Below are positions 1,658 to 26,790 of a stretch of DNA of 31,978 nucleotides, one piece after another. The stretch is taken from the IMG/VR virus record IMGVR_UViG_3300042885_000687, positions 1-31,978 of that record. One strand, given 5' to 3'. Every line of letters begins with the position of its first letter. Position 1 is the first letter of the stretch. The translations under genes were made by a program, and so were the position numbers. The notes beneath the pieces are model-generated. The model was given only the letters and a program-made list of their open reading frames with translations. It had not been told where the DNA came from and did not search any database. This DNA is from a virus. Lineage: Duplodnaviria > Caudoviricetes.

Positions 1658-1870
1658 ATGTTAACTAAATTAAAATTAACGGAAAGTGAAATAAGAGATA
1701 TCTTAAGTAAACATGGTGTAAAATCTAATGTTATATCTGAGCAAACTCAAAATTATACAACTTTGGATATACAGAATTGGTTAAATTCTAATAAAAAGGC
1801 AGGATTAGATCCTGATGGTAAAATAGGACCTTTAACTCTTAAGGCCATAAAAAACGCTTTAATGGGGTAA
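1658..1870 (+). CDS. small protein with an LTE leader and a peptidoglycan-binding (PGBD-like) motif
   Basis: IQNWLN...GLDPDGKIGPLTLKAI matches the LQxxL...DGxxGxxTxxA pattern. N-terminus is KLKLTESEIRDIL. Confidence 0.7.
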   Translation: MLTKLKLTESEIRDILSKHGVKSNVISEQTQNYTTLDIQNWLNSNKKAGLDPDGKIGPLTLKAIKNALMG

Positions 1871-1873
1871 GAT

Positions 1874-3877
1874 ATGAAAAAAATTACAGATAGTTTTATA
1901 AAGAAAATCGTTAGACAAAGTCTTAACGAAAATTACGGTTTATTAAATGAGGAAGGCGGAACATATAGTTATGTATTAACTAAAGATTATGGTAAAGCAC
2001 CAAGAATCCTAAAAAAGGGAACTATAATAACAAACTTAACAATTCCTGAGTGTCCTGAAGGGGGATTCTGTTATAGTAATCTTGGTATGGCGGAAAGTAT
2101 ACGTAAAAATTTCTCAAATAAAAATCTTATTATCAAAGGTTGTGATAATAAAGTGGTTAAAATGGGTGTACCAACTCTCCCAACAAGTAAAATCGTAGAT
2201 ATAAAAAATCTTTTAATGAATGAATTAAGTGAAAGTTTTATTAATTACGAAACGGTAAAATCACAGATCCAAAAATTAACTGACTGGCCAACTTTTTGTG
2301 CCGCATATCGTGAGTCAAAAAAAACTCAGAATATGCCTCTTGGGTTTATTGGTACTAGTGATTTTAACACCAATAGATCAAATGGGGGTGTAGGTGATTA
2401 TGGTATTGAAAATGATGATCAGGGTGATAGAAATGATTATTATTCATTTATAGCCATTTTGTTTGATAATTCACTTGAAATAAGTAAAGAAGGTATTGAG
2501 GTGTGGAAACAAGATCTAGCAAAAAACGCTAAAATACTTATTGATAAAAAGATTGAAGATAAAACCAAAGCTGAACAAGCGAAAAAAGATGAGGAAGAAA
2601 GAAAGAAAAAAATTGGTGGTGGATCATCATCTTGGGTTGGTTTTGAAGCGATAACTGAACATCCGGCTTTAGGTACAAATGAGGTTATTACTACATCAGA
2701 AGGTGATGCTTCTGTTTATAGTTTAAGAACTGGCAATCCAAATTATGATAAGTTCTTATATGGTATAATAGTAAGAAAGGACGATGGTACAGTACAACCA
2801 GTTAAGTTTAGAACTGACGATAAAACAAACCCAATTCCAATAGACATAGAAACTGACGTTCCAATTAAATGGGCGGTTGGTAAGGATGATGTATGGAAAT
2901 ATAATGACGTTATATTAAGTGAGGATGGTAAAAATATTGCATTAACAACTAATCCTAATCTTGAGAATCCATTCCTACAAAATGAAAGTTTTAATCGTAA
3001 AGGATTTAGATATGACTTATTAACCGAGGCTCCAAACCCAACGACTACAACAACAACTACTGTTGTTACACCTCCTGTTTTTGAATTATCGTTGGTTAAA
3101 AAATCTAAAGGGCCTGACGTTAAATTAATCCAACAAAAATTAGGTATTGATGATGATAGTAAATTTGGGACTGACACCGATACCGCAGTAAAAGCATTCC
3201 AAGAAAAATATAAAACTAAATTACCTAACGCAACACCAGGTGTTGTTGATCAAGCTACATTTGATTTAATTAAATCGTTAAAAGGTAGTGGATCAAGAAA
3301 AGTTTACTCAGGTGCTAAAACTAACTACAAAGTTAATGATTGGATATACGTTAAACCAAATAAAGGGTTGGAAGGTGATTTATTGGCGGAGAAAAAGTAC
3401 TTTAAAATTATTAGTATTACGCCTGATCGTTATACTATCGTGTTAGATTTACCAAAAGATGCGACTGATTTTGCTATCGATACTGTTGGTGGTGTAACCG
3501 CTAAACTTGTATTTGGTCGTGACGCTGAAGGTGAATCACAAACTATTAATATTAGTAGTGATCAGGATGGAAGTGAATCTGAAGGTGGTGAATCTGAAGG
3601 TGGAAAAGGTAAAAGAAATCAAGTAAGTACTGGAGGTACCGTAGATTCTGAAACCCAAAGAAGACGAGATATACGTAAAAAAGAAACTTGTGATACACTA
3701 AGACAAATTAAACAATATTTAAATAACACCAAAGGATTGAGTATGACGGTTAATTGTAAATGGAATCAAGAAATACGTGACCAAGTTATGATGGCTCTTA
3801 CGGGAGGAAGTCCGGCACCAATACAAGAACCTGGTGTTAATGTACAACCTGTACCTGTAACCGATAAGTTATTTTAA
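1874..3877 (+). CDS. 667-aa multidomain protein with a PGBD-like domain, probably virion-associated
   Basis: KGPDVKLIQQKLGIDDDSKFGTDTDTAVKAFQ...GVVDQAT is PGBD-like. It also has a Thr-rich linker and N-terminal SLNE/LLNE motifs. Confidence 0.7.
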   Translation: MKKITDSFIKKIVRQSLNENYGLLNEEGGTYSYVLTKDYGKAPRILKKGTIITNLTIPECPEGGFCYSNLGMAESIRKNFSNKNLIIKGCDNKVVKMGVPTLPTSKIVDIKNLLMNELSESFINYETVKSQIQKLTDWPTFCAAYRESKKTQNMPLGFIGTSDFNTNRSNGGVGDYGIENDDQGDRNDYYSFIAILFDNSLEISKEGIEVWKQDLAKNAKILIDKKIEDKTKAEQAKKDEEERKKKIGGGSSSWVGFEAITEHPALGTNEVITTSEGDASVYSLRTGNPNYDKFLYGIIVRKDDGTVQPVKFRTDDKTNPIPIDIETDVPIKWAVGKDDVWKYNDVILSEDGKNIALTTNPNLENPFLQNESFNRKGFRYDLLTEAPNPTTTTTTTVVTPPVFELSLVKKSKGPDVKLIQQKLGIDDDSKFGTDTDTAVKAFQEKYKTKLPNATPGVVDQATFDLIKSLKGSGSRKVYSGAKTNYKVNDWIYVKPNKGLEGDLLAEKKYFKIISITPDRYTIVLDLPKDATDFAIDTVGGVTAKLVFGRDAEGESQTINISSDQDGSESEGGESEGGKGKRNQVSTGGTVDSETQRRRDIRKKETCDTLRQIKQYLNNTKGLSMTVNCKWNQEIRDQVMMALTGGSPAPIQEPGVNVQPVPVTDKLF

Positions 3878-3896
3878 AAAAAACAATAAAGATATT

Positions 3897-3921
3897 AAGG
3901 GAGATTATTCTCCCTTTTTTT
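3897..3921 (+). terminator. intrinsic terminator
   Basis: AAGGGAGA-TTAT-TCTCCCTT followed by a T run. Confidence 0.85.
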
Positions 3922-3955
3922 ATGCCATTTTTTTTGTTAATCCAAATAAAAACCT

Positions 3956-3963
3956 TATATTTG
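3956..3963 (+). promoter_or_regulatory. -7 element TATATTTG, leaderless spacing
   Basis: TATATTTG-tgat-ATG(3968). Confidence 0.7.
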
Positions 3964-3967
3964 TGAT

Positions 3968-4180
3968 ATGAAAGTAACGAAGAAAGAACAATTATTTATG
4001 GAACTCTTGGAAAAAGAAGGAGTTGTTTGGGTTTTTGATTACATTTTTTTTGAAACTAAGGATAAAAAAGGGTATGACAAGGTTATTGGATATAAAGCTT
4101 GGAATATTGCGTATGATTTAATAAAAAAAGGTTTAATAAAAGTTAACCCTGAAAACCCATCAAGTTGGGTAAAAAATTAA
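3968..4180 (+). CDS. hypothetical protein
   Basis: 70-aa ORF directly after the promoter. Confidence 0.7.
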   Translation: MKVTKKEQLFMELLEKEGVVWVFDYIFFETKDKKGYDKVIGYKAWNIAYDLIKKGLIKVNPENPSSWVKN

Positions 4181-4183
4181 GAT

Positions 4184-4585
4184 ATGGAAAAAATATTATA
4201 TATTGTTAGAGGTGTACCTGGTTCGGGTAAATCTACATTTGCAAAATCATTAGGTGGGACTCATTTTGAGACCGACACATTTTTTATGGAGAATGGTGAA
4301 TATAAATTTGATTTTACCAAATTGAAAGAAGCTCATAAATGGTGTCAGGATGGTGTTAATACTGCGATGATTATGAATCACACTGCAAACATTAATAATG
4401 TGATTGTGGTATCCAATACGTTCACACAGGAGTGGGAAATGGAACCATACTTTCAGATGGCAAGTACTTTTGATTACAAAGTATTTTCAATAATTGTTGA
4501 GAACAGACATGGTGGTGTTAATCAACACGGAGTTCCTGAAGATAAGATCCAAATAATGAAAGATAGATTTGAAGTGAAGTTATGA
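4184..4585 (+). CDS. P-loop kinase, AAA_33 / polynucleotide-kinase-like
   Basis: Walker A RGVPGSGKST, plus VSNTF and HGVP motifs typical of N4BP2/PNK-like kinases. Confidence 0.85.
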   Translation: MEKILYIVRGVPGSGKSTFAKSLGGTHFETDTFFMENGEYKFDFTKLKEAHKWCQDGVNTAMIMNHTANINNVIVVSNTFTQEWEMEPYFQMASTFDYKVFSIIVENRHGGVNQHGVPEDKIQIMKDRFEVKL

Positions 4586-5454
4586 GTAGATTAGATAAAT
4601 TAAAAGAACAACATCCTGAATTAAACATTACCCTTATAGATCTTATTGGTATGATAGATCCTACCGATACATATAAATATTCAGAGTTCCTAATCAAAAT
4701 TTTGAAAAATTGGTATGTTAATACGGATATACGATATGGGATTGGAATTGATTTGTTTGGTGAAGAACAGGTTGAATCTTTAAATGAATTTGAAAGACAT
4801 TGTAAGGCAAAAAGAGTTGAAAAAAATGATATTAGTCAACACACTGACTTTAGAAGTTTAAAGGTTGAAGTTGAAAAGGCTAAAGAAATACTCAGATTAA
4901 AGGAGTTGGAAAAACAAACCAAAAAATTATTTGATAATGATGAGTGGTTAGTTATAATTCCTTTAAGTTATGAGGCGTCAAAACTGTACGGTATGGAAAC
5001 AAAGTGGTGTACAACTCAGGAACGTTATTGGAATGATTATATTAGAAAATATAAACTAATTTATGTCATCAATAAAATAACAAATAACAAGTACGCCATA
5101 TCTAGAGATAAAACGGAAGATAAAGATTTAAAGGCTTGGTTATCTGATGATACTGAAACTAGTCCTTTATTGTTACCAATACCTCAAGACTTATGGTCCG
5201 TGATAATGCCTGAATTACAAAAACAAGAATCTGTTACCGATTTAATTGGTGGGGATTTAACTGGAATCATCAACCTAACTTCAGGAAGTTCCGATAGTAT
5301 TGTTGATAGAGTTAGAAGATTGATGGACATTATAGATAGACCAGTTAGTGAACCATATAGAACACAGACAACACATTACCCAAATAATTTAAGTAATTAC
5401 GTTGATTACGATAGTTATATAAGACAATTAAGGGTTGAGGATAACGATTATTAA
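4582..5454 (+). CDS. hypothetical protein with PLxYEASxxYGxxTxWCT motif (paralog of 10439..11458)
   Basis: Shares the motif and N-terminal similarity with the 339-aa ORF. Confidence 0.75.
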   Translation: MSRLDKLKEQHPELNITLIDLIGMIDPTDTYKYSEFLIKILKNWYVNTDIRYGIGIDLFGEEQVESLNEFERHCKAKRVEKNDISQHTDFRSLKVEVEKAKEILRLKELEKQTKKLFDNDEWLVIIPLSYEASKLYGMETKWCTTQERYWNDYIRKYKLIYVINKITNNKYAISRDKTEDKDLKAWLSDDTETSPLLLPIPQDLWSVIMPELQKQESVTDLIGGDLTGIINLTSGSSDSIVDRVRRLMDIIDRPVSEPYRTQTTHYPNNLSNYVDYDSYIRQLRVEDNDY

Positions 5455-5474
5455 GAACCTTAAAATAAAAAAAT

Positions 5475-6128
5475 ATGAAATTTGATAAAATATTAACAAC
5501 AGGTAGAGTGTGGGTTACATCGGATCCACATTACAACCATAAAAACATTTGCCGAGGTGTAACCGATTGGAGAACACAAGATGGTAAAGTACCTGATTGG
5601 AGCACACGAGACTTCCAAACATTAGAACTAATGAACAATACGTTGGTGGATAACATCAACTCAAAAGTTGGTCAAGACGACACTTTAATTATGTTAGGTG
5701 ATGTTGCGTTCGGTGGATTTGAAAATATTAAAATTTTCTTGGACCGTTTGGTATGTAAAAACATTCACTTGGTTTTAGGGAACCACGATCACCACATTAG
5801 AACTAACAGAGAGGGTATTCGAGATATGTTCCTATCGGTTCAGGATTACTTACAGGTTACAATAGATGGCGCTAACTTTGTAATGAGTCACTACCCATTT
5901 GAAAGTTGGAATGGACTTAACAAAGGTGTTATTCACCTTCACGGGCACGTTCACTTACCTGTTGGTAAAAAATGGGGTAAAGGTAAACGATTAGATGTTG
6001 GTGTTGATGGTAATAGTTTATGTCCATATAGTATAACTGAAATTGTTCATATGATGGACAAGAGAGACATTGTATCTGAAATGGATAATGATCACCACCT
6101 AGATGATATAGTTGGGGTTGTGGGTTAA
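5475..6128 (+). CDS. calcineurin-like metallophosphoesterase
   Basis: Motifs SDPH, LGD, GNHD, SHYP and HGHVH in canonical order. Confidence 0.93.
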   Translation: MKFDKILTTGRVWVTSDPHYNHKNICRGVTDWRTQDGKVPDWSTRDFQTLELMNNTLVDNINSKVGQDDTLIMLGDVAFGGFENIKIFLDRLVCKNIHLVLGNHDHHIRTNREGIRDMFLSVQDYLQVTIDGANFVMSHYPFESWNGLNKGVIHLHGHVHLPVGKKWGKGKRLDVGVDGNSLCPYSITEIVHMMDKRDIVSEMDNDHHLDDIVGVVG

Positions 6129-12492: not shown

Positions 12493-13626
12493 ATGGAGGA
12501 TAATAAAATTATAATTGAGGAGTTAGGTAGGATTAAAAACCTTATGGGTTACGATCGTTCTAAAACCTTAAACGAAAATATTAATGAAGCCGATGGTATT
12601 GTTGATAAGGTATATAGATGGTTATTACCTTCAGGTGATATTGTTAAAGGTACAGATATTAAGGGTAAAATACCTAAAGGGTCAAAATTACTTAATGGTG
12701 TTAACGCAGAAAAGGCGGTTAATGTTGCTGGAGGGGCAACAACTGCGTCATCACTTGTTGGTGGAGAAACTGCAGCGGTTGCTGGAGCTGAAGTTGCCGC
12801 GGTAGGTGGTGTTGAAGCCGCAACCGTAGGAACAACCGCAGTTGCTGGTGAAGCCGCAACAGGTACGTTTTTAGGTTTAGGTCCTGTTGGTTGGACTGTA
12901 CTTGGTGTTGCGGGTATTGCGGCATTAGGTATGTGGGGTTTAACTAAAGATGATGATATGGGGATGATCACAAGATTGTTTGATATGTGTAAAACAAGTC
13001 CTGATAGAAAAAAATGGAAAAGATTTTTGGGGGATGATGAAGCTAAAAAACTTTCAGGTAAATTATTCCACGCAATGGAGGGGTTAGGTACAAATGAAGA
13101 TGTGGTTTATAAAGTATTTGGATCATTAAAAAGTCCTGCTGATTTTTGTAAGGTTAGTGAAATATATGAAAAATCATTTGGTGAGTCCTTATTAGAAGGA
13201 CTAGATAGTGATTTTGATTATGGTTGGGAACCAATTGCAACATCTTTAGTTGATATGACTAAAAATTACGCTCAATCTGAGGCGGAAGATTATTGTAAAA
13301 AAAATCCTGAAGAATGTGCTAAAAAATTGGAGGAATATTGTAGTAAAAATCCTAAAGATGAAAAATGTAAAGATGTTACCAAAGTTGGTGGTGGAGGTGA
13401 AGAGATTGATGACATTACCTACAAAACTTGTGATGGGACATATAATCTTGGATGTAAAGATGATGAAGATGATGAGGTTTATGCATTACAATCTTGTTTA
13501 GGTGTAAATAAAAGTGGTGAATTTGACAAAAAAACTGAGGAAGCATTGAAAATAAAAACAGGAAAAACATCAATCACGAAACGAGAAATTTGGGCGTTAT
13601 GTGATGAGTTTAATCGAAATAATTAA
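12493..13626 (+). CDS. putative virion protein with a Gly/Ala-rich hydrophobic segment, an annexin-like repeat and a degenerate PGBD
   Basis: GTFLGLGPVGWTVLGVAGIAALG (hydrophobic), LFHAMEGLGTNED...YEKSFGESLLEGL (annexin-like) and VYALQSCLG...GEFDKKTEEAL (PGBD-like). Confidence 0.7.
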   Translation: MEDNKIIIEELGRIKNLMGYDRSKTLNENINEADGIVDKVYRWLLPSGDIVKGTDIKGKIPKGSKLLNGVNAEKAVNVAGGATTASSLVGGETAAVAGAEVAAVGGVEAATVGTTAVAGEAATGTFLGLGPVGWTVLGVAGIAALGMWGLTKDDDMGMITRLFDMCKTSPDRKKWKRFLGDDEAKKLSGKLFHAMEGLGTNEDVVYKVFGSLKSPADFCKVSEIYEKSFGESLLEGLDSDFDYGWEPIATSLVDMTKNYAQSEAEDYCKKNPEECAKKLEEYCSKNPKDEKCKDVTKVGGGGEEIDDITYKTCDGTYNLGCKDDEDDEVYALQSCLGVNKSGEFDKKTEEALKIKTGKTSITKREIWALCDEFNRNN

Positions 13627-13784: not shown

Positions 13785-15347
13785 ATGAAAAAAATTTACG
13801 CAAGTATTGTAATGTTAATGTTTGTTTTCTTAACAAACGCACAAAGTCAGTTTTGGACTGTTACTGACTACAAGGGGGCTTTTCCTGTGACCGATAATAC
13901 ACCACAGACAGATTGGACTTATGGGTGGTCTAACTTTGATCCTGAGAATACAAATTACCCGGCAACACAAACAACAATAAGTTCTGATATCACAACAAAC
14001 ACAACCTTATCTGGTGTAGTCTTATTACAGAATAAGATATATGTGAAAAATGGTGCAACACTTACAATCCAACCCGGAACAATAATTAGAGGTGACTATT
14101 CAACACAAGGAACTTTAATTGTTACGAGAGGATGTAAATTAATTGCTGAAGGAACACAACAATTACCAATCGTATTCACTTCAAATAATTCAGTTGGAAA
14201 TAGATCTGAAGGTGATTGGGGTGGAGTTGTTATTTTAGGTAACGGAGTTAATAACCAACCTGGTGGTGTTGCAAATATTGAAGGTATTGTACCAACACCT
14301 GATACTGAATTTGGTGGAAGTAATGATATGGATAATTCAGGTTCATTAAAATATGTAAGAATTGAATTTGGTGGTATTCCTTTATCACCTAATAAAGAAA
14401 TTAATGGTATTACTTTTGGTTCGGTTGGATCAGGAACACAAGTAGATTATATCCAGGTTAGTTATTCGGGTGATGATTCATTTGAATGGTTTGGAGGAAC
14501 GGTTAACTGTAAACATTTAATATCATATTCAACAACTGATGATGATTTTGATACTGACTTTGGTTATAGAGGTAATGTTCAGTTTGGGTTATCAATTCGA
14601 AATGAAAATTTGTCAGACGCCGCAGGTGACTCAAATTGTTTCGAATCTGACAATGACGCACAAGGTAGTGTGGCTTTACCACAAACTGCACCTATTTTTT
14701 CTAACTTCACACTTGTTGGGGCTAAAGGTGATGGTAACGTTGTTTTACCTATGGGTGAAAAATTTGAGAAAGCATTTAGAATTAGAAGAAACTCAGCGGT
14801 TTCAGTATTTAACACTCTTGTTGTTGGATGGGAAAAAGGTTTATCGTTAGAAGGAACGTCAGTTGAGGATAACGTATTAGGAGATACACTATCTTTCAAT
14901 AGTAATGTACTTTGTGAAATACCAACAAATTGTTTGGTTACAACACCAGGGTTTTTAAACGCATATTTTTCAAATAACAATAACGATTCATTAACAACAA
15001 TTAATCAAATTAATTGGGTTAATATTTTTGTCCCTAATGGGGTAACTCCTGATTGTAGATTAGATAGTACATCGGTTGTTGCGACAGGTGCGGACTTTAC
15101 AAATGATAAATTCGGTGATTTAACTAATAGTATTAGTGAAACAATCAAAACATCGTTTAAAGTATTCCCTAACCCAACAGAAGGTTTAATCAGTATTGAT
15201 TCTGATAAAAAATCTTTAAATTTTGTAATCTACAATTCATTGGGTAAAGTTGTAAAACAAAACAATACAGACTTATCGGATTTGGAAAATGGTATTTATA
15301 TCATCAATGCTGATGGTCATACGGAAAAAGTTATAGTTAAAAAATAA
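13785..15347 (+). CDS. secreted beta-helix-like protein with a T9SS type A C-terminal sorting domain
   Basis: Signal peptide ending AQ, repeated acidic turns (GDWGGVVILG, DDSFEWFGG, DDDFDTDFG), and C-terminal KVFPNPT...IYNSLGK...LENGIYII...KVIVKK. Confidence 0.85.
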   Translation: MKKIYASIVMLMFVFLTNAQSQFWTVTDYKGAFPVTDNTPQTDWTYGWSNFDPENTNYPATQTTISSDITTNTTLSGVVLLQNKIYVKNGATLTIQPGTIIRGDYSTQGTLIVTRGCKLIAEGTQQLPIVFTSNNSVGNRSEGDWGGVVILGNGVNNQPGGVANIEGIVPTPDTEFGGSNDMDNSGSLKYVRIEFGGIPLSPNKEINGITFGSVGSGTQVDYIQVSYSGDDSFEWFGGTVNCKHLISYSTTDDDFDTDFGYRGNVQFGLSIRNENLSDAAGDSNCFESDNDAQGSVALPQTAPIFSNFTLVGAKGDGNVVLPMGEKFEKAFRIRRNSAVSVFNTLVVGWEKGLSLEGTSVEDNVLGDTLSFNSNVLCEIPTNCLVTTPGFLNAYFSNNNNDSLTTINQINWVNIFVPNGVTPDCRLDSTSVVATGADFTNDKFGDLTNSISETIKTSFKVFPNPTEGLISIDSDKKSLNFVIYNSLGKVVKQNNTDLSDLENGIYIINADGHTEKVIVKK

Positions 15348-15352
15348 TAGGA

Positions 15353-17914
15353 ATGAAATTTTTATTGACGTTATTATTGGTACTACCAATACAATTATTA
15401 GCTCAACCATCTGAGACATTTAAAAAAGACTCAGTTAGAAATGTTGAGGGGGTTACAGTTACCTTTAAAATTAATAAAGAATCAACAACAGAACTTGTAA
15501 AACTACAAAGAAATAGTGTTACATCTGTAGACGGAATTAACGCAGAGACCTTTAAGAGAACACCAGACTCTAAGGTCTCTGATGTTTTTAAACGTGTAAG
15601 TGGGATAAGTGTTGTGGATAATAAGTTCGTGGTTGTGAGGGGTCTTAATGATAGATATAACTTCGCATTATTGAACGGACTACCTTTACCAAGTTCGGAA
15701 TCAGATAAGAGATCTTTTTCATTTGATATATTCCCATCAAACATGATTGATAATCTAATGGTAATGAAGACTGCTAGCCCTGATTTACCTGGTGAGTTTG
15801 CCGGTGGTATAATTGATATCAATACTTCCGAACCTAAAAATGAAAATACTCATACAATACAGATTGGTGGATCACATAATACAATTGCAACATTTAGGAA
15901 TTTTAAAACATATGATGTTGAATCTAGAGGGTTACCAAATATTAACGGAACTATTGATTTCCAAAACTTATCAAAACAAGAAAGGTCTGAGGTTGCAAAA
16001 CTAATGGATTTTACTTGGTCAACTAAAGATAGACTTGCGTTACCTAACCCATCTATTCAATATACATTAAGTAGAAACATTAAATTAAAAAAGAAACAAA
16101 CGTTAAGTTTCATTTTAACATATAACTACCAAAACAACTTCAACTATAATAATATTGTTAGAAGAGAGTTTGAGGAACAAGCGACAGGTGTGGTTAAGAA
16201 AATGGAACTAAATGATTCTGTCTTTACTCAGAGTGTTTTGAATAGTGGTATGTTAAATTTGGTTTATAAGATTAATGAAAACAACACCATCAAGTTTAAG
16301 AACATTTATTCCGTAAATTCTGAAGATAAGGTTAACGTTAGAAATGGTGTAAGAGAATTGGATAGTGATCCAAGACAATGGGAAAAGTCTACAAATTTTT
16401 GGTATACTCAAAATAACTTTTTAACTAATCAATTACTTGGGATCCACACGATAAAAGAAAATAAATTTAATTGGAGTGTTGGTTATAGTAATGTTAAAAG
16501 AGACATACCAAACCTAAGGAGAGTAGTTTATAGAAAATACTCTTTAAATGAGGATGATCCAACAGAACAATATGTTGCCGTGGTTCAACAGAATGGTACC
16601 ATACCAACGGCAGCCGGTAATATGTTTTGGTCCGAATCAGATGAAAAAATTATAAGCGCTAGATATGATCTAACAATTCCATTTAAAGAGGTTAATTCAA
16701 TTAAAATCGGTGGATGGAATCAATTTAGAATGAAAGACTTTCAATCAAGAAACTTTGGGTTTTCACAATATAAACCAAACGGTAGTACCTTTAATAGTAA
16801 CTTACTTTTATTACCTATGGATCAAATATTTTCTATTGAGAATATGGGTCTTTTGAGTAATGGTCAGGGTGGTTTTAAATTAGATGAAGCAACCAAAGTG
16901 GATGATAGTTATAATGCGAATTCATTATTAAACTCTTTCTACACTATGGTTGATTACAAATTAGATAAGTGGAGATTTACGGGTGGAGTTAGATTAGAAT
17001 CTTACAATCAAAACTTTAACTACATTGAATTTGGGAGTAACCTAAATAGAAACATTGATACCACTGTGATTGATTTATTACCTTCGGTTAATATAATTTA
17101 TAACTTCAATAAAAAAATGAAGTTAAGAGGAAGTATTAGTCAAACGGTATCAAGACCTGAGTTTAGGGAGTTGGCTCCATTTAACTTCTATAACTTTATA
17201 TTAGATAATATTACATCAGGTAATCCATACTTAAAAAGAACTAAGATAACTAATTGTGATATTAGATATGAAGTTTATCCTGGTAGTGGTCAGATTATAA
17301 GTTTGTCAGGATTTTACAAAAACTTTGATAATCCTATTGAAACTATAAATAGGACTGGAACATCAGGAGCACCTGAGTTATACTTTTCAAACATAGATAG
17401 ATCACAAAGTTTTGGTGGTGAGTTAGAATTTAGATTTAAATTAGGGTTTTTATCTAAAGTTGAAAATCATAAGTTATGGGATCAACTTACACTTTATAGT
17501 AATGTATCTTTAATAAAATCTGTGGTTAACATGGATGAGGTTATAGGTGCGGGGGGTAACAGACCATTACAAGGTCAATCACCATACATCATTAATTCAG
17601 GGTTATTTTACACGAATAAAAAAGAAGATTTTAATATGACATTATCATATAATGTTATTGGACCTAGAATATATATTGTTGGTAATCAACAAGAACCTAG
17701 TGTTTGGGAAAACGGTAGAAATGTTATTGACCTCCAACTATCAAAAACTTATAAAAAGTTTGAATTAAAATTAAACATAAAAGATATATTAGCACAAAAA
17801 CTTATATACTTTCAAGACCTAAATGGTAATCAAAAATATGACACAGAAGATAATAGGTGGCAAGAGATTACTTTTGGTCAAACGGTTTCACTATCGGTTA
17901 GATATAAGTTTTAA
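15353..17914 (+). CDS. TonB-dependent outer-membrane receptor
   Basis: Signal peptide, plug motifs VRGLNDRYN...LNG and VMKTASPDLPGEFAGGII, barrel motifs SRPEFRELAP and GNPYLK, and a terminal Phe (SVRYKF). Confidence 0.93.
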   Translation: MKFLLTLLLVLPIQLLAQPSETFKKDSVRNVEGVTVTFKINKESTTELVKLQRNSVTSVDGINAETFKRTPDSKVSDVFKRVSGISVVDNKFVVVRGLNDRYNFALLNGLPLPSSESDKRSFSFDIFPSNMIDNLMVMKTASPDLPGEFAGGIIDINTSEPKNENTHTIQIGGSHNTIATFRNFKTYDVESRGLPNINGTIDFQNLSKQERSEVAKLMDFTWSTKDRLALPNPSIQYTLSRNIKLKKKQTLSFILTYNYQNNFNYNNIVRREFEEQATGVVKKMELNDSVFTQSVLNSGMLNLVYKINENNTIKFKNIYSVNSEDKVNVRNGVRELDSDPRQWEKSTNFWYTQNNFLTNQLLGIHTIKENKFNWSVGYSNVKRDIPNLRRVVYRKYSLNEDDPTEQYVAVVQQNGTIPTAAGNMFWSESDEKIISARYDLTIPFKEVNSIKIGGWNQFRMKDFQSRNFGFSQYKPNGSTFNSNLLLLPMDQIFSIENMGLLSNGQGGFKLDEATKVDDSYNANSLLNSFYTMVDYKLDKWRFTGGVRLESYNQNFNYIEFGSNLNRNIDTTVIDLLPSVNIIYNFNKKMKLRGSISQTVSRPEFRELAPFNFYNFILDNITSGNPYLKRTKITNCDIRYEVYPGSGQIISLSGFYKNFDNPIETINRTGTSGAPELYFSNIDRSQSFGGELEFRFKLGFLSKVENHKLWDQLTLYSNVSLIKSVVNMDEVIGAGGNRPLQGQSPYIINSGLFYTNKKEDFNMTLSYNVIGPRIYIVGNQQEPSVWENGRNVIDLQLSKTYKKFELKLNIKDILAQKLIYFQDLNGNQKYDTEDNRWQEITFGQTVSLSVRYKF

Positions 17915-17977: not shown

Positions 17978-18091
17978 ATGGTAGGACTTATACTTTTTTT
18001 ACTGATAATAATGGTCTCGGCTTTTATTAGGAAAGTCAATAAAGATAAGGACCACCCTTTTAATAAATTCTTAAATGATAGGAAAGAATAA
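17978..18091 (+). CDS. 37-aa single-TM microprotein (not in the ORF track)
   Basis: MVGLILFLLIIMVSAFIRKVNKDKDHPFNKFLNDRKE, starting at the conserved promoter spacing. Confidence 0.65.
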   Translation: MVGLILFLLIIMVSAFIRKVNKDKDHPFNKFLNDRKE

Positions 18092-18359
18092 AAAAATAGT
18101 TATAAAAAATTTTTTGGATACTCATTACAGTGATTTAGTGTGTAGCCCAAAAAATCTTTGTTATCATAAAGAGGGTGAAGTATATTTTGAGTTCCAACCT
18201 AAAGAAGAAATAATATTTCTTAATTGGATAAAAATGGTGAAACCATTAATTGGAACATTTAATATTAATGACAACGATCCTGAAATATTAAGTGAGTTGT
18301 ATAATATTATGGAGGAATGGTTTAAAGAAGAATATAATGTGGTTGGATCAATAACATAA
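18075..18359 (+). CDS. hypothetical protein, possibly related to the N-domain of 25834..26790
   Basis: 94-aa ORF ending IMEEWFKEEY, compared with YVTEWFESRF in the other protein. Confidence 0.65.
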   Translation: MIGKNKKIVIKNFLDTHYSDLVCSPKNLCYHKEGEVYFEFQPKEEIIFLNWIKMVKPLIGTFNINDNDPEILSELYNIMEEWFKEEYNVVGSIT

Positions 18360-25238: not shown

Positions 25239-25847
25239 ATGATTGATAACATAGAACAAATAAAAGGATTACTTAACTTTGAAAACAAAGGTGACTTTTA
25301 TATGCTTTACGTTTTTAAACGAAAGAAGGACCAACCTGAAGGGGAAAGAGATAATCACCAGTCAGTTAGAACAATTAAATCATATTGTATTGAATCCATT
25401 GAACACTTGGATCGTAGGTATGATGAGATTAAACAACTTTGTGAGATGTTTAAGGCTCGTGCTTATATCCACGTTCAAAAACAAAATCATACGGACGTGT
25501 CATTGAATATGATGGTTGATCTTGCTAAAAGAATACAAGACGGTAATCATAAACAAAAAGGTTTATTTGATTCTGTTGTGGGACAAGTTAAAACACAAGA
25601 GAAACGTTGGATTGTTGATATCGATACGACCGACTATCATGCGGTTACTGAAGTGACACAATTTATAAACTATCTCAGACCTGAAGGGCCAAAAGTTGAA
25701 ATGGTAATACCAACTAAGAATGGGTATCATTTAATAACAGGTAGATTTGATGTTAAAACATTTAGTGAAAAACATCCGGACATTGACATTCAAAAGAAGA
25801 ACCCAACATTATTGTATTACCCAAAAAGTTTAGATGATGAATTATAA
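25239..25847 (+). CDS. putative archaeo-eukaryotic primase (AEP)-superfamily protein
   Basis: WIVDID (hhhDxD) and PTKNGYHL (sxGxH) motifs. TATTTATA lies upstream at 25220-25227. Confidence 0.5.
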   Translation: MIDNIEQIKGLLNFENKGDFYMLYVFKRKKDQPEGERDNHQSVRTIKSYCIESIEHLDRRYDEIKQLCEMFKARAYIHVQKQNHTDVSLNMMVDLAKRIQDGNHKQKGLFDSVVGQVKTQEKRWIVDIDTTDYHAVTEVTQFINYLRPEGPKVEMVIPTKNGYHLITGRFDVKTFSEKHPDIDIQKKNPTLLYYPKSLDDEL

Positions 25848-26790
25848 AGAATTAAAAAGAAAAGAATTTTTATTTGAGATTATTGATGATGTCATCGATG
25901 GTATGGATGTTTATAATCATAATGGATCTCTTTGGTTAATTAAAACTGAAGAATTAAAATGGGCAATTGAATTTACCAAAGATAAAATATTGTGGTATAA
26001 CTACAATTTATTTAAAAATTTATTTAAGGCAATTTCTTTAGATATTTCGGAAAATCAAAAATATGTAACTGAATGGTTTGAATCAAGATTTTTGAATAAA
26101 CCAAAGGTGTGGGCCACTTTTAATCACGCAATTGATAGCAACCAAGCCGTTGAAGACACCATCCAAAATGGGGTGAAACACACCCAAGGGGATCAACAAC
26201 CATTTCATATTGACGTTGAAGATACCATTGAAAATGGGGTGAGAGATATTTCCCCAATGACACAATATGCTGATTGGCAAGTTGAAGAAATAATTCAAAA
26301 TGGTGTGAAGGAAACTTTAAGTACTGCGGGAAAACCATTGAGGGTTGAAGACACCATTCAAAATGGGGTAAAAGAGACTATTAGTACACTACGGCGTACT
26401 GCTAAGTGGGGTGTTGATGACATTATTCAAAATGGGGTGAAGGAAATCAGATCAAATAAAGGATTGATAACTTCCTACAGACAAAATCACAAGGCCAAAA
26501 AAACTATTGAAAATGGGGTGAAGGACACCAAACCAATGGATGAGTGGGTAAATGCTGAAAGTATTATTGAAAACACAATAGAGTATGGTGTAAAAGAAAC
26601 CTGTGAAGATGTGTATCACCATAAAGGTAGAATCGGTGGTGTGATTAAAAATGGAGTTAAAGAAGTCCAACCATTACCAGCACAAGATGGTAATAGAGAT
26701 TGGGGTAACTATTATTTCGGAAAGCAAGATAGAACAAAACCTTTTAATGATTATCTTAATGACGCAATTAAATACGGTAAAAAAATATAA
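25834..26790 (+). CDS. repeat protein: N-terminal domain plus 8 VEDTIQNGVKxx repeats separated by unique linkers
   Basis: Repeats are visible in both protein and DNA. Confidence 0.8.
   Translation: MMNYKELKRKEFLFEIIDDVIDGMDVYNHNGSLWLIKTEELKWAIEFTKDKILWYNYNLFKNLFKAISLDISENQKYVTEWFESRFLNKPKVWATFNHAIDSNQAVEDTIQNGVKHTQGDQQPFHIDVEDTIENGVRDISPMTQYADWQVEEIIQNGVKETLSTAGKPLRVEDTIQNGVKETISTLRRTAKWGVDDIIQNGVKEIRSNKGLITSYRQNHKAKKTIENGVKDTKPMDEWVNAESIIENTIEYGVKETCEDVYHHKGRIGGVIKNGVKEVQPLPAQDGNRDWGNYYFGKQDRTKPFNDYLNDAIKYGKKI
26149..26667 (+). repeat. array of eight 36-bp direct repeats with unique spacers, inside the CDS
   Basis: Repeat starts at 26149, 26215, 26281, 26344, 26413, 26494, 26566 and 26632. 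First copy is GTTGAAGACACCATCCAAAATGGGGTGAAACACACC. Confidence 0.9.

Follow-up and report, generated by a model that had tools for sequence, protein, structure and literature searches.

How a repeat-spacer array of CRISPR-like appearance can lie in frame within a protein-coding gene of a phage, and what writes it and keeps it readable as peptide, is the question raised by the locus described here. The locus lies in a 31,978-nt stretch of DNA (IMG/VR record IMGVR_UViG_3300042885_000687), referred to below over its whole length as the window, whose source is a huge freshwater phage. On the plus strand, positions 25834–26790 form an open reading frame without internal stops that encodes 318 amino acids and contains the whole array in frame; from the ORF list and homologue searches, it was identified as a member of a large phage family.

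Layout of the array

Eight 36-nt repeats starting at 26149, 26215, 26281, 26344, 26413, 26494, 26566 and 26632 were separated by spacers of 30, 30, 27, 33, 45, 36 and 30 nt, with every period divisible by 3 and the first five copies beginning with GTTG; these positions verified the in-frame, stop-free arrangement that an earlier note had read from the letters. All features are on the plus strand. The gene starts with a conserved, folded N-terminal domain (25834–26100, residues 1–89, pLDDT blocks 75–91), the coding end of which is the leader-side flank of the array. Comparison with relatives brought out a ninth, collapsed unit 5′ of the array, made up of a degenerate first repeat reduced to a 12-nt remnant (26107–26118), which reads VWAT where relatives have VEDT-like residues, and a 30-nt insert, spacer 0 (26119–26148, FNHAIDSNQA). 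The collapse was likely a deletion that ran from one ACACC word of the repeat to the other. Repeat 1 (26149–26184), VEDTIQNGVKHT, is near-consensus and served as the reference (36/36) to which the other copies were aligned. Spacer 1 (26185–26214, QGDQQPFHID), repeat 2 (26215–26250, 28/36), spacer 2 (26251–26280, 30 nt, found by array comparison also in distant relatives), repeat 3 (26281–26316, 27/36), spacer 3 (26317–26343, 27 nt) and repeat 4 (26344–26379, 31/36) follow. By array comparison, spacer 4 (26380–26412, 33 nt) belongs to a TLRRT family and spacer 7 (26602–26631, 30 nt) to a DVYHH family, both old and common to many relatives; between them lie repeat 5 (26413–26448, 28/36), spacer 5 (26449–26493, 45 nt), repeat 6 (26494–26529, 26/36), spacer 6 (26530–26565, 36 nt) and repeat 7 (26566–26601, 25/36). 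Repeat 8 (26632–26667, 19/36) is identifiable only by its retained peptide motif, IKNGVKE. The C-terminal tail (26668–26790) ends, by unit comparison and in the model, in a degenerate half-unit, LNDAIKYGKKI, which is possibly a cap.

Elsewhere in the window, the best match to repeat 1 was 22/36 on the plus strand, and the minus strand never reached 21, so copies 1–7 (25–36/36) stand above background. The decay toward the 3′ end reported earlier held as a general trend; it is not monotonic, copy 4 being closer to repeat 1 than copies 2 and 3. Only copy 4 had the inverted core CCATT-CAA-AATGG in exact form; copies 1 and 2 came near to it. Repeat RNA folded no better than shuffled sequence. The spacers of the window showed no mutual kinship (best local score 7). 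Since the first repeat has collapsed and one near-perfect repeat is left, the copy in the window may be slow or frozen in growth. The largest ORF of the window is at most 853 aa, and no linked cas13b was found within the window. Tandem Repeats Finder, run on the window, did not report the array. Other genes of the window encode a T9SS-tail protein and a TonB receptor.

Protein family and comparison set

Relatives of the 318-aa protein numbered 2222 among 8000 scored candidates, and 44 among 3476 candidates were longer than it. After an N-terminal domain of ~90 residues, family members carry units that combine a 12-residue motif with ~10 variable residues, at 5–28 units per protein (164 proteins). 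For comparison, 40 distinct arrays with 352 units and 219 spacer clusters were drawn by script from 111 viral loci; these 40 arrays are related and are not independent samples. Complete genomes of relatives with the same array measured 292–309 kb and carried one array apiece.

For the protein of the window, no family in Pfam or NCBIfam scored above cut-off and the ESM Atlas gave nothing usable. Rfam had no match at gathering level. The best PHROG was 12585 (E 9.5e-7), of which the function is not known. A Dodecin match on the repeats was sub-threshold and was set aside. For the N-terminal domain, the best BFVD matches were uncharacterised proteins of uncultured Caudovirales phage, and a fold search returned only weak helix-turn-helix-like arrangements (Z at most 5.9). 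Contigs of relatives covered the gene in 4/4 metatranscriptome runs; such contigs lack strand and processing information and DNA may contribute to them, and they were not taken as support.

Selection on the reading frame and peptide

The length of all 219 spacer clusters was a multiple of 3. In-frame stops were found in 0/178 of the 30-mer spacers, whereas the other five frames had 50–98 and shuffles 91 ± 6, and 60 further spacers from 11 more arrays were likewise 3n and stop-free. In host 36-nt arrays, 38/236 spacers were off 30 nt and 91/198 30-mers contained stops in the same frame. One of the 40 phage arrays was broken, by a stop within an old 33-nt spacer.

Codon changes agreed with this pattern. 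For repeats, pN/pS was 0.36, with 0.15 in their IQNGVK core; retained spacers (44 variant pairs from 22 spacer families) gave 0.32. Among changed spacer codons, 49/100 (49%) altered the residue, against 74 ± 4% expected under neutrality (2000 simulations, minimum 60%; 3 pairs with >7 differences were dropped), and with one pair taken per spacer family, 35/63 changes fell at third positions. As judged from these codon comparisons, retained spacers and older repeats are under protein-level purifying selection, and the earlier suggestion of such selection is confirmed by the stop depletion, the low pN/pS and the mostly synonymous change in retained spacers. An ORF mis-called over a non-coding CRISPR array is excluded by the frame, stop and pN/pS data, in particular because stops are absent from the 178 spacers and a folded, conserved N-terminal domain precedes every array. 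Databases contain many spurious ORFs that overlie CRISPR arrays; in the available part of PMC7673337 their median length is 79 aa.

Growth at the 5′ end

Across the 40 arrays, the mean distance of repeats to the consensus rose from 2.5 at the 5′ end to 8.0 at the 3′ end (rho 0.63), and spacer sharing among phages was higher toward the 3′ end (rho 0.24); the ortholog comparison for turnover polarity raised by the earlier note thus revealed growth at the 5′ end. Spacers flanked by near-perfect repeats measured 30 nt in 44/45 cases. In a DNA scan independent of ORFs, with gaps of 28–32 nt allowed, 51/51 distinct spacers were 30 nt and stop-free. A fixed spacer length and constant repeats with unique spacers, as in CRISPR arrays, were thus both found.

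Insertion by Cas1-Cas2 duplicates the first (leader-side) repeat each time. In 5/6 hand-picked arrays, private repeat variants ran 2–4 copies deep at the 5′ end, with blocks in the sixth; copying of the first repeat with every insertion would leave such a series of private variants. From this comparison of arrays, we infer that growth is polarised and that the leader-side repeat is duplicated in the process. The codons GGG, GTG and ACC were kept in 101–106 of ~120 copies of young repeats, and their usage in twelve genes of the window was 13–17%; the retention of codons that are rare in the phage suggests that the DNA itself is constrained where the array grows, with recent exchange between phages as an alternative source. 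Units were reordered and duplicated (L011 versus L012, L088, L401), which shows that recombination also acts.

Spacer matches to host chromosomal genes

When compared with 251 Bacteroidota genomes, the T9SS-tail protein of the window matched genome G109 at 65% identity, far above others. The family of G109 includes a genome of Brumimicrobium, a genus assigned to Crocinitomicaceae by NCBI. Four array stretches with 77 distinct spacers of at most 36 nt were searched against 301 genomes of this family, and in the loci that these searches yielded, 18 spacer sequences had matches of at least 83%. Six spacers of relatives matched host-family genes at 28–30/30, 3 in sense and 3 in antisense orientation. 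The 30/30 match is antisense and spans the pgi/lipB junction; matches at 29/30 lie in yggS and a KilA-N gene, both in the native frame, and in a 552-aa ORF in a shifted frame; matches at 28/30 lie antisense in ispG and in an 845-aa ORF, where both mismatches of the best match are at third codon positions. The match to the 845-aa ORF recurs at the spacer edges in 11/301 genomes, and recurrence of matches at identical spacer edges was seen in 11, 8 and 20 of the 301. A search of Bacteroidota genomes with the spacers, as envisaged in the earlier note, was thus productive for relatives, with the two spacers of the window itself reaching 26/30 only.

A simple chance model gave 0.0045 expected matches at ≥28/30 and 2.1 at ≥26/30; the model is optimistic, because in 11/301 genomes a host gene was also matched, at 93–96% over 27–28 nt, by a non-spacer stretch (6 nt of spacer and 22 nt of repeat). 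Weaker matches (25–27/30), which make up 12/18 rows and were not counted as proof, included gatA, hutH, phytoene desaturase, a DUF7948 gene and a lipid A methyltransferase-like gene; three matches at 25/30 and a peptidase M28 match are likely due to chance or uncertain. In the window itself, spacer 0 matched a cystathionine gamma-synthase-family gene and spacer 1 a PKD-domain gene of host-family genomes, both antisense at 26/30. Such matches are suggestive of host origin; the chance expectation for spacer 0 at this level is 0.2, and a variant of spacer 1 in a relative matched at 27/30.

In a control family of 141 genomes, a good match was found for the KilA-N spacer only, and genomes with any match numbered 12/141, against 63/301 in the host family. 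The GC content of spacers was 38–39%, that of the phage 31–32% and that of the host loci 39%. Searches of wider scope added little: two further arrays compared with 5 genomes gave one 26/30 match for one array and none for the other, a 54-genome genus matched only an already known spacer, and exact scans of metagenomes with two spacers gave zero matches. The search of phages for protospacers, which the earlier note had advised, gave no match above 24/30 in the genomes of two complete related phages and other array loci; for the L012 array, INPHARED phages had no protospacer (2 records at E 0.5). No array bearing the phage repeat was detected in the search of the 301 host-family genomes. No PAM was seen by eye in the flanks of the 18 match rows (≥83%), which come from relatives of the host and not from the host.

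Relation of the repeat to known CRISPR types

A motif scan of one genome per species returned 24 loci, mostly 36/30 arrays beside large ORFs with HEPN-like motifs; the motif was partly modelled on VI-B repeats, and the scan therefore favours these. Three of the large ORFs were tested by NCBIfam, and two were Cas13b. The repeats of the 36/30 arrays were 19–22/36 identical to window repeat 1, the exception being L113 (Parapedobacter soli), the closest repeat found, with 28/36 to window repeat 1 and 30/36 to the phage consensus. The L113 array was matched through its repeats at E 4e-7, and its neighbours are a TnpB/Cas12f-like gene, an ECF sigma factor and an HTH gene. In the available part of PMC13472631, hth/rpoE-dcas12f loci carry such a layout, with arrays that hold self-chromosome spacers. 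L113 and the rpoE-dcas12f arrays, so far as that source describes the latter, resemble the phage array in the repeat (30/36), the CACACC end, the lack of a self-hairpin and the self-chromosome spacers, but they are non-coding and adjoin an effector and a sigma factor, whereas the phage array is coding. One query for a dCas12f-like gene found none in 5 phage records or 5 host-family genomes.

The earlier note had pointed to a likeness to type VI-B repeats in reverse complement. This likeness is real and moderate (22–23/36 to the phage consensus), and the repeat of the dCas12f-type locus is closer. As with the VI-B arrays of Flavobacterium columnare, the phage array has a 36-nt repeat and mostly 30-nt spacers, no cas1 of its own and spacers from the host chromosome; the VI-B combination of a 36-nt repeat with a poly-U loop and 30-nt spacers is present. 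Unlike VI-B arrays, it has no cas13b found in the window and no GUUG/CAAC hairpin, and it is a strictly 3n, stop-free ORF selected as peptide. The defining features of VI-B repeats, according to the available part of 10.1101/092577, are GUUG/CAAC ends and a hairpin; the minus strand of the phage repeat starts with GGUG and lacks the complementary GUUG/CAAC ends, and folding of the repeat RNA relative to shuffles gave z about 0 (values of −0.03, −0.42 and 0.42), compared with −3.69 for a VI-B-type repeat. With the hairpin absent and the 5′-GUUG end replaced by GGUG, mimicry of VI-B crRNA, and with it the option of a dual-use crRNA mimic for Cas13b, is unsupported. The array is CRISPR-like in growth, yet it is not type VI-B.

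Compact arrays borne by phages, as far as PMC6858448 could be consulted, are comparable in being phage-borne without acquisition genes, in their proposed use of host Cas proteins and in some chromosome targets; they are described there as intergenic sources of guide RNAs, and no translated array is mentioned in that part of the source. PMC6509639 was rejected as a precedent, the available part dealing with a fragmented CasY with self-targeting spacers and not with a coding array, and PMC10367356, in the part available, was not relevant.

Predicted structure of the repeat region

In the full-length model, the N-terminal domain and part of the tail were folded and the repeats were unfolded (pLDDT block means 27–33). 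Repeat modelling used an in-register alignment of 69 five-unit windows, and 2/5 of the in-register models exceeded pLDDT 70. AlphaFold predicted 5.5 units of the relative L012 as all-beta (pLDDT 77.6, pTM 0.73), with strands over the repeat halves and turns at NG and in mid-spacer. The nearest solved folds to the L012 model were right-handed beta-helices (Z 9–10.6, rmsd 2.2–2.7 over 109–122 residues), at Z values within the range common for repeats, and Foldseek with the repeat model found nothing at E ≤ 0.001. Right-handed parallel beta-helix proteins (SufB/SufD-type, the C-terminal domain of CAP, TBCC and CsgA) resemble the predicted fold in having one rung per repeat; at 2–11% identity to the repeat model, they have an arrangement in common that implies neither kinship nor function. 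In the prediction, every unit of 22 residues adds one rung to a parallel beta-solenoid, with the spacer core as a variable edge. No signal peptide was seen by eye in the protein.

Proposed mechanism and rival explanations

Taken together, the comparisons indicate that a host Cas1-Cas2 probably writes a selected phage protein. During infection, a 30-nt piece of host DNA would be inserted at the junction of the N-terminal domain and the first repeat, the repeat would be duplicated and 22 codons would be gained. The putative writer is a host type II-C Cas1-Cas2 that would work in trans, with host DNA as the source of its prespacers, and the inserts would stem, as shown for relatives, from host-family chromosomal genes on either strand, in the native frame or not. 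Judged by the rates in host arrays, about half of the insertions would keep the frame and be free of stops, and only those would be observed. A surviving insert would form a new 10-residue loop on the predicted beta-solenoid; useful loops would persist and evolve as peptide, and units would be deleted, duplicated and swapped between phages, a pattern shown among the relatives for which recombination at the repeats would account. In the weakest step, which is about as doubtful as it is plausible, the protein would stay cytoplasmic and its loops would bind a changing host target in an arms race. Tentatively, the host integrase may serve huge Bacteroidota phages as a protein-diversifying engine that places random host-derived loops on a beta-solenoid as a variable binding surface; equally tentatively, the product may be a natural peptide-display library made by Cas1-Cas2 that also records the hosts of the phage. 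The earlier ideas of an exapted CRISPR array and of a fixed scaffold with variable loops are combined here, in line with the host-gene spacers of relatives and the growth at one end.

Host Cas1-Cas2 would be the most economical writer by analogy with Flavobacterium columnare, where, according to the available part of PMC8092290, a II-C Cas1 fills a Cas1-less 36-nt VI-B array in trans with 30-nt spacers, from self and phage in about equal numbers; the same source calls cross-talk unproven where repeat lengths differ. Of the 301 host-family genomes, 66 had Cas1, in most cases next to II-C-type arrays whose spacers were mainly 30 nt. The host-family II-C repeats measured 46–57 nt where fully called and shared 10–13 of their first 21 nt with the phage repeat, and the cas-proximal repeat end started with GTT in 12/14 host II-C arrays read. 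Among host arrays in the VI-B-aligning orientation, decay lay at the left end in 5 and at the right end in 5. The mismatch in repeat length, the lack of a PAM in the flanks and the absence of Cas1 from the five best-matching host-family draft genomes leave room for another integrase, phage-encoded or otherwise not Cas1, whose evolution began on a CRISPR-type repeat or led to one by convergence, with the same capture and the same selection. Growth across many phage lineages, when Cas1 is present in so few genomes of the family, is a further point in its favour. Such a writer is nonetheless unlikely, as the 36 + 30 geometry and the 30/36 identity to a real CRISPR repeat point to Cas1-Cas2; against a phage-encoded one, 5 phage records, 3 of them complete genomes, yielded no Cas1, and an HMM derived from host Cas1 gave a best E of 0.43 over 1933 frames of 2 complete phage genomes.

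Other readings change the role of the array. Purifying selection on retained spacers as peptide, and the keeping of IQNGVK in repeats despite synonymous drift, make it quite unlikely that the array is a DNA-level sink or accident of host Cas1-Cas2 insertion into repeat-like coding DNA, perhaps a decoy that drains adaptation, with idle loops and a frame kept only against polar effects or toxic truncation. Polarity as the reason for the frame is weakened by several loci in which a TA..TTTG-like motif directly follows the stop or no long ORF lies downstream; a sink would fit the conservation of young repeats at synonymous sites, the likeness of young spacers to arbitrary host DNA in any frame and a unit number that spans 2 to 28. 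Dual use, by which minus-strand guide RNAs for a host dCas12f-sigmaE or Cas13b would direct or jam the effector on host genes, is improbable. It would explain why spacers match host genes and is in keeping with the closest repeat coming from an hth-rpoE-dcas12f-like locus, a class with self-chromosome spacers in the available part of PMC13472631, and with the L113 repeat also lacking a self-hairpin; yet the VI-B hairpin is absent, the one dCas12f query drew no match, the targets lie inside coding regions on both strands with no visible 5′-G motif, and most repeats decay as DNA while the peptide is kept. That old units are common to phages and reordered would suit an ordinary repeat protein shaped by duplication and recombination, but the host-gene matches end at the spacer edges, which rules out duplication alone; this explanation is scarcely credible, and the same holds for the mis-called non-coding array, however frequent spurious ORFs of that kind may be.

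Relation to other diversifying systems and implications

Diversity-generating retroelements work by mutating template-derived adenines, lamprey variable lymphocyte receptors by copying stored cassettes. Both resemble the phage array in having a constant scaffold with a genetically diversified surface; unlike in either, new units of the array are apparently captured from arbitrary host DNA. A diversity-generating retroelement was rejected as the source of the spacers, which have no fixed positions (by per-position composition) and were traced to host genes. Spacer acquisition is known for storing guide RNAs, and here insertion of a like kind appears to create protein sequence. If true, this would be a separate route of protein diversification, next to point mutation, retroelement mutagenesis and cassette shuffling, and arbitrary DNA would here give rise to coding sequence whose units can be traced one at a time. 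A coding array that takes inserts in frame is also a possible starting point for in-cell peptide libraries. A literature search, with supplements and most subscription journals outside its scope and an earlier description thus possible, found no translated, growing array described. Spacers of this kind would assign hosts to uncultured huge phages in the order of acquisition, here the family that holds Brumimicrobium, Crocinitomicaceae. The sequencing runs that best covered the window were lake-water metagenomes.

Paralogs and collapsed repeats of the array gene

Tandem pairs of paralogous array genes were found at six array-bearing loci of related phages (L047, L051, L056, L077, L085 and L086), and in these pairs every gene has its own N-terminal domain and its own set of spacers. 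Small stand-alone paralogs of the N-terminal domain are numerous in uncultured phages in BFVD, and in the window a 94-aa ORF ending in WFKEEY (18075-18359) looks, by eye, like such a paralog.

At the start of the array, the copy upstream of repeat 1 is often shrunken to approximately 12 nt, as in the window (26107-26118) and at the related phage loci L054, L047, L050 and L056, and a 30-nt spacer is thereby joined to the N-terminal domain. The remnant appears as if it had arisen by deletion between the two ACACC words of the repeat.

Comparison with bacterial loci

A stretch made up of a spacer's end and the adjoining 22 nt from a variant repeat matches a segment of a host gene at 93-96% in the Crocinitomicaceae-family locus L233 (G491:C9) and in 10 further genomes. 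The segment is conserved and, as read from L233 alone, translates as WSVENTIENA; the gene looks like prmA. The match may be due either to chance or to an ancestral source of the motif.

Among bacterial CRISPR loci, Parapedobacter soli (L113, 5600-7500) carries an hth-rpoE-dcas12f-like locus with an array of four repeats, interspersed with several longer guide-like units that have the end of the repeat in common. Flavipsychrobacter (L123) has an array of 30 repeats (36/30), adjoined at 3627-5879 (oriented) by a 750-aa ORF that is possibly a compact Cas13b-like effector. In the type II-C-like arrays of two loci in host-family genomes (L332 and L339), the spacers are 30 nt, and the repeats, at 57-58 nt, are unusually long.

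Other genes and motifs of the window

At 13785-15347 the window encodes a protein of 520 aa that carries a T9SS C-terminal sorting domain and is 65% identical to a gene from a Crocinitomicaceae-family genome; an 853-aa TonB-dependent receptor (15353-17914) follows it. Both are phage-borne envelope genes of host type. TA..TTTG-like motifs, which resemble the Bacteroidota housekeeping promoter element, run right up to an ATG at 1225, 3956, 7818, 17966, 23490, 24238 and 27365. By eye, the proteins encoded at 1658-3877 and 12493-13626 show LLNE/INE-type tags that recur, together with peptidoglycan-binding-like segments.
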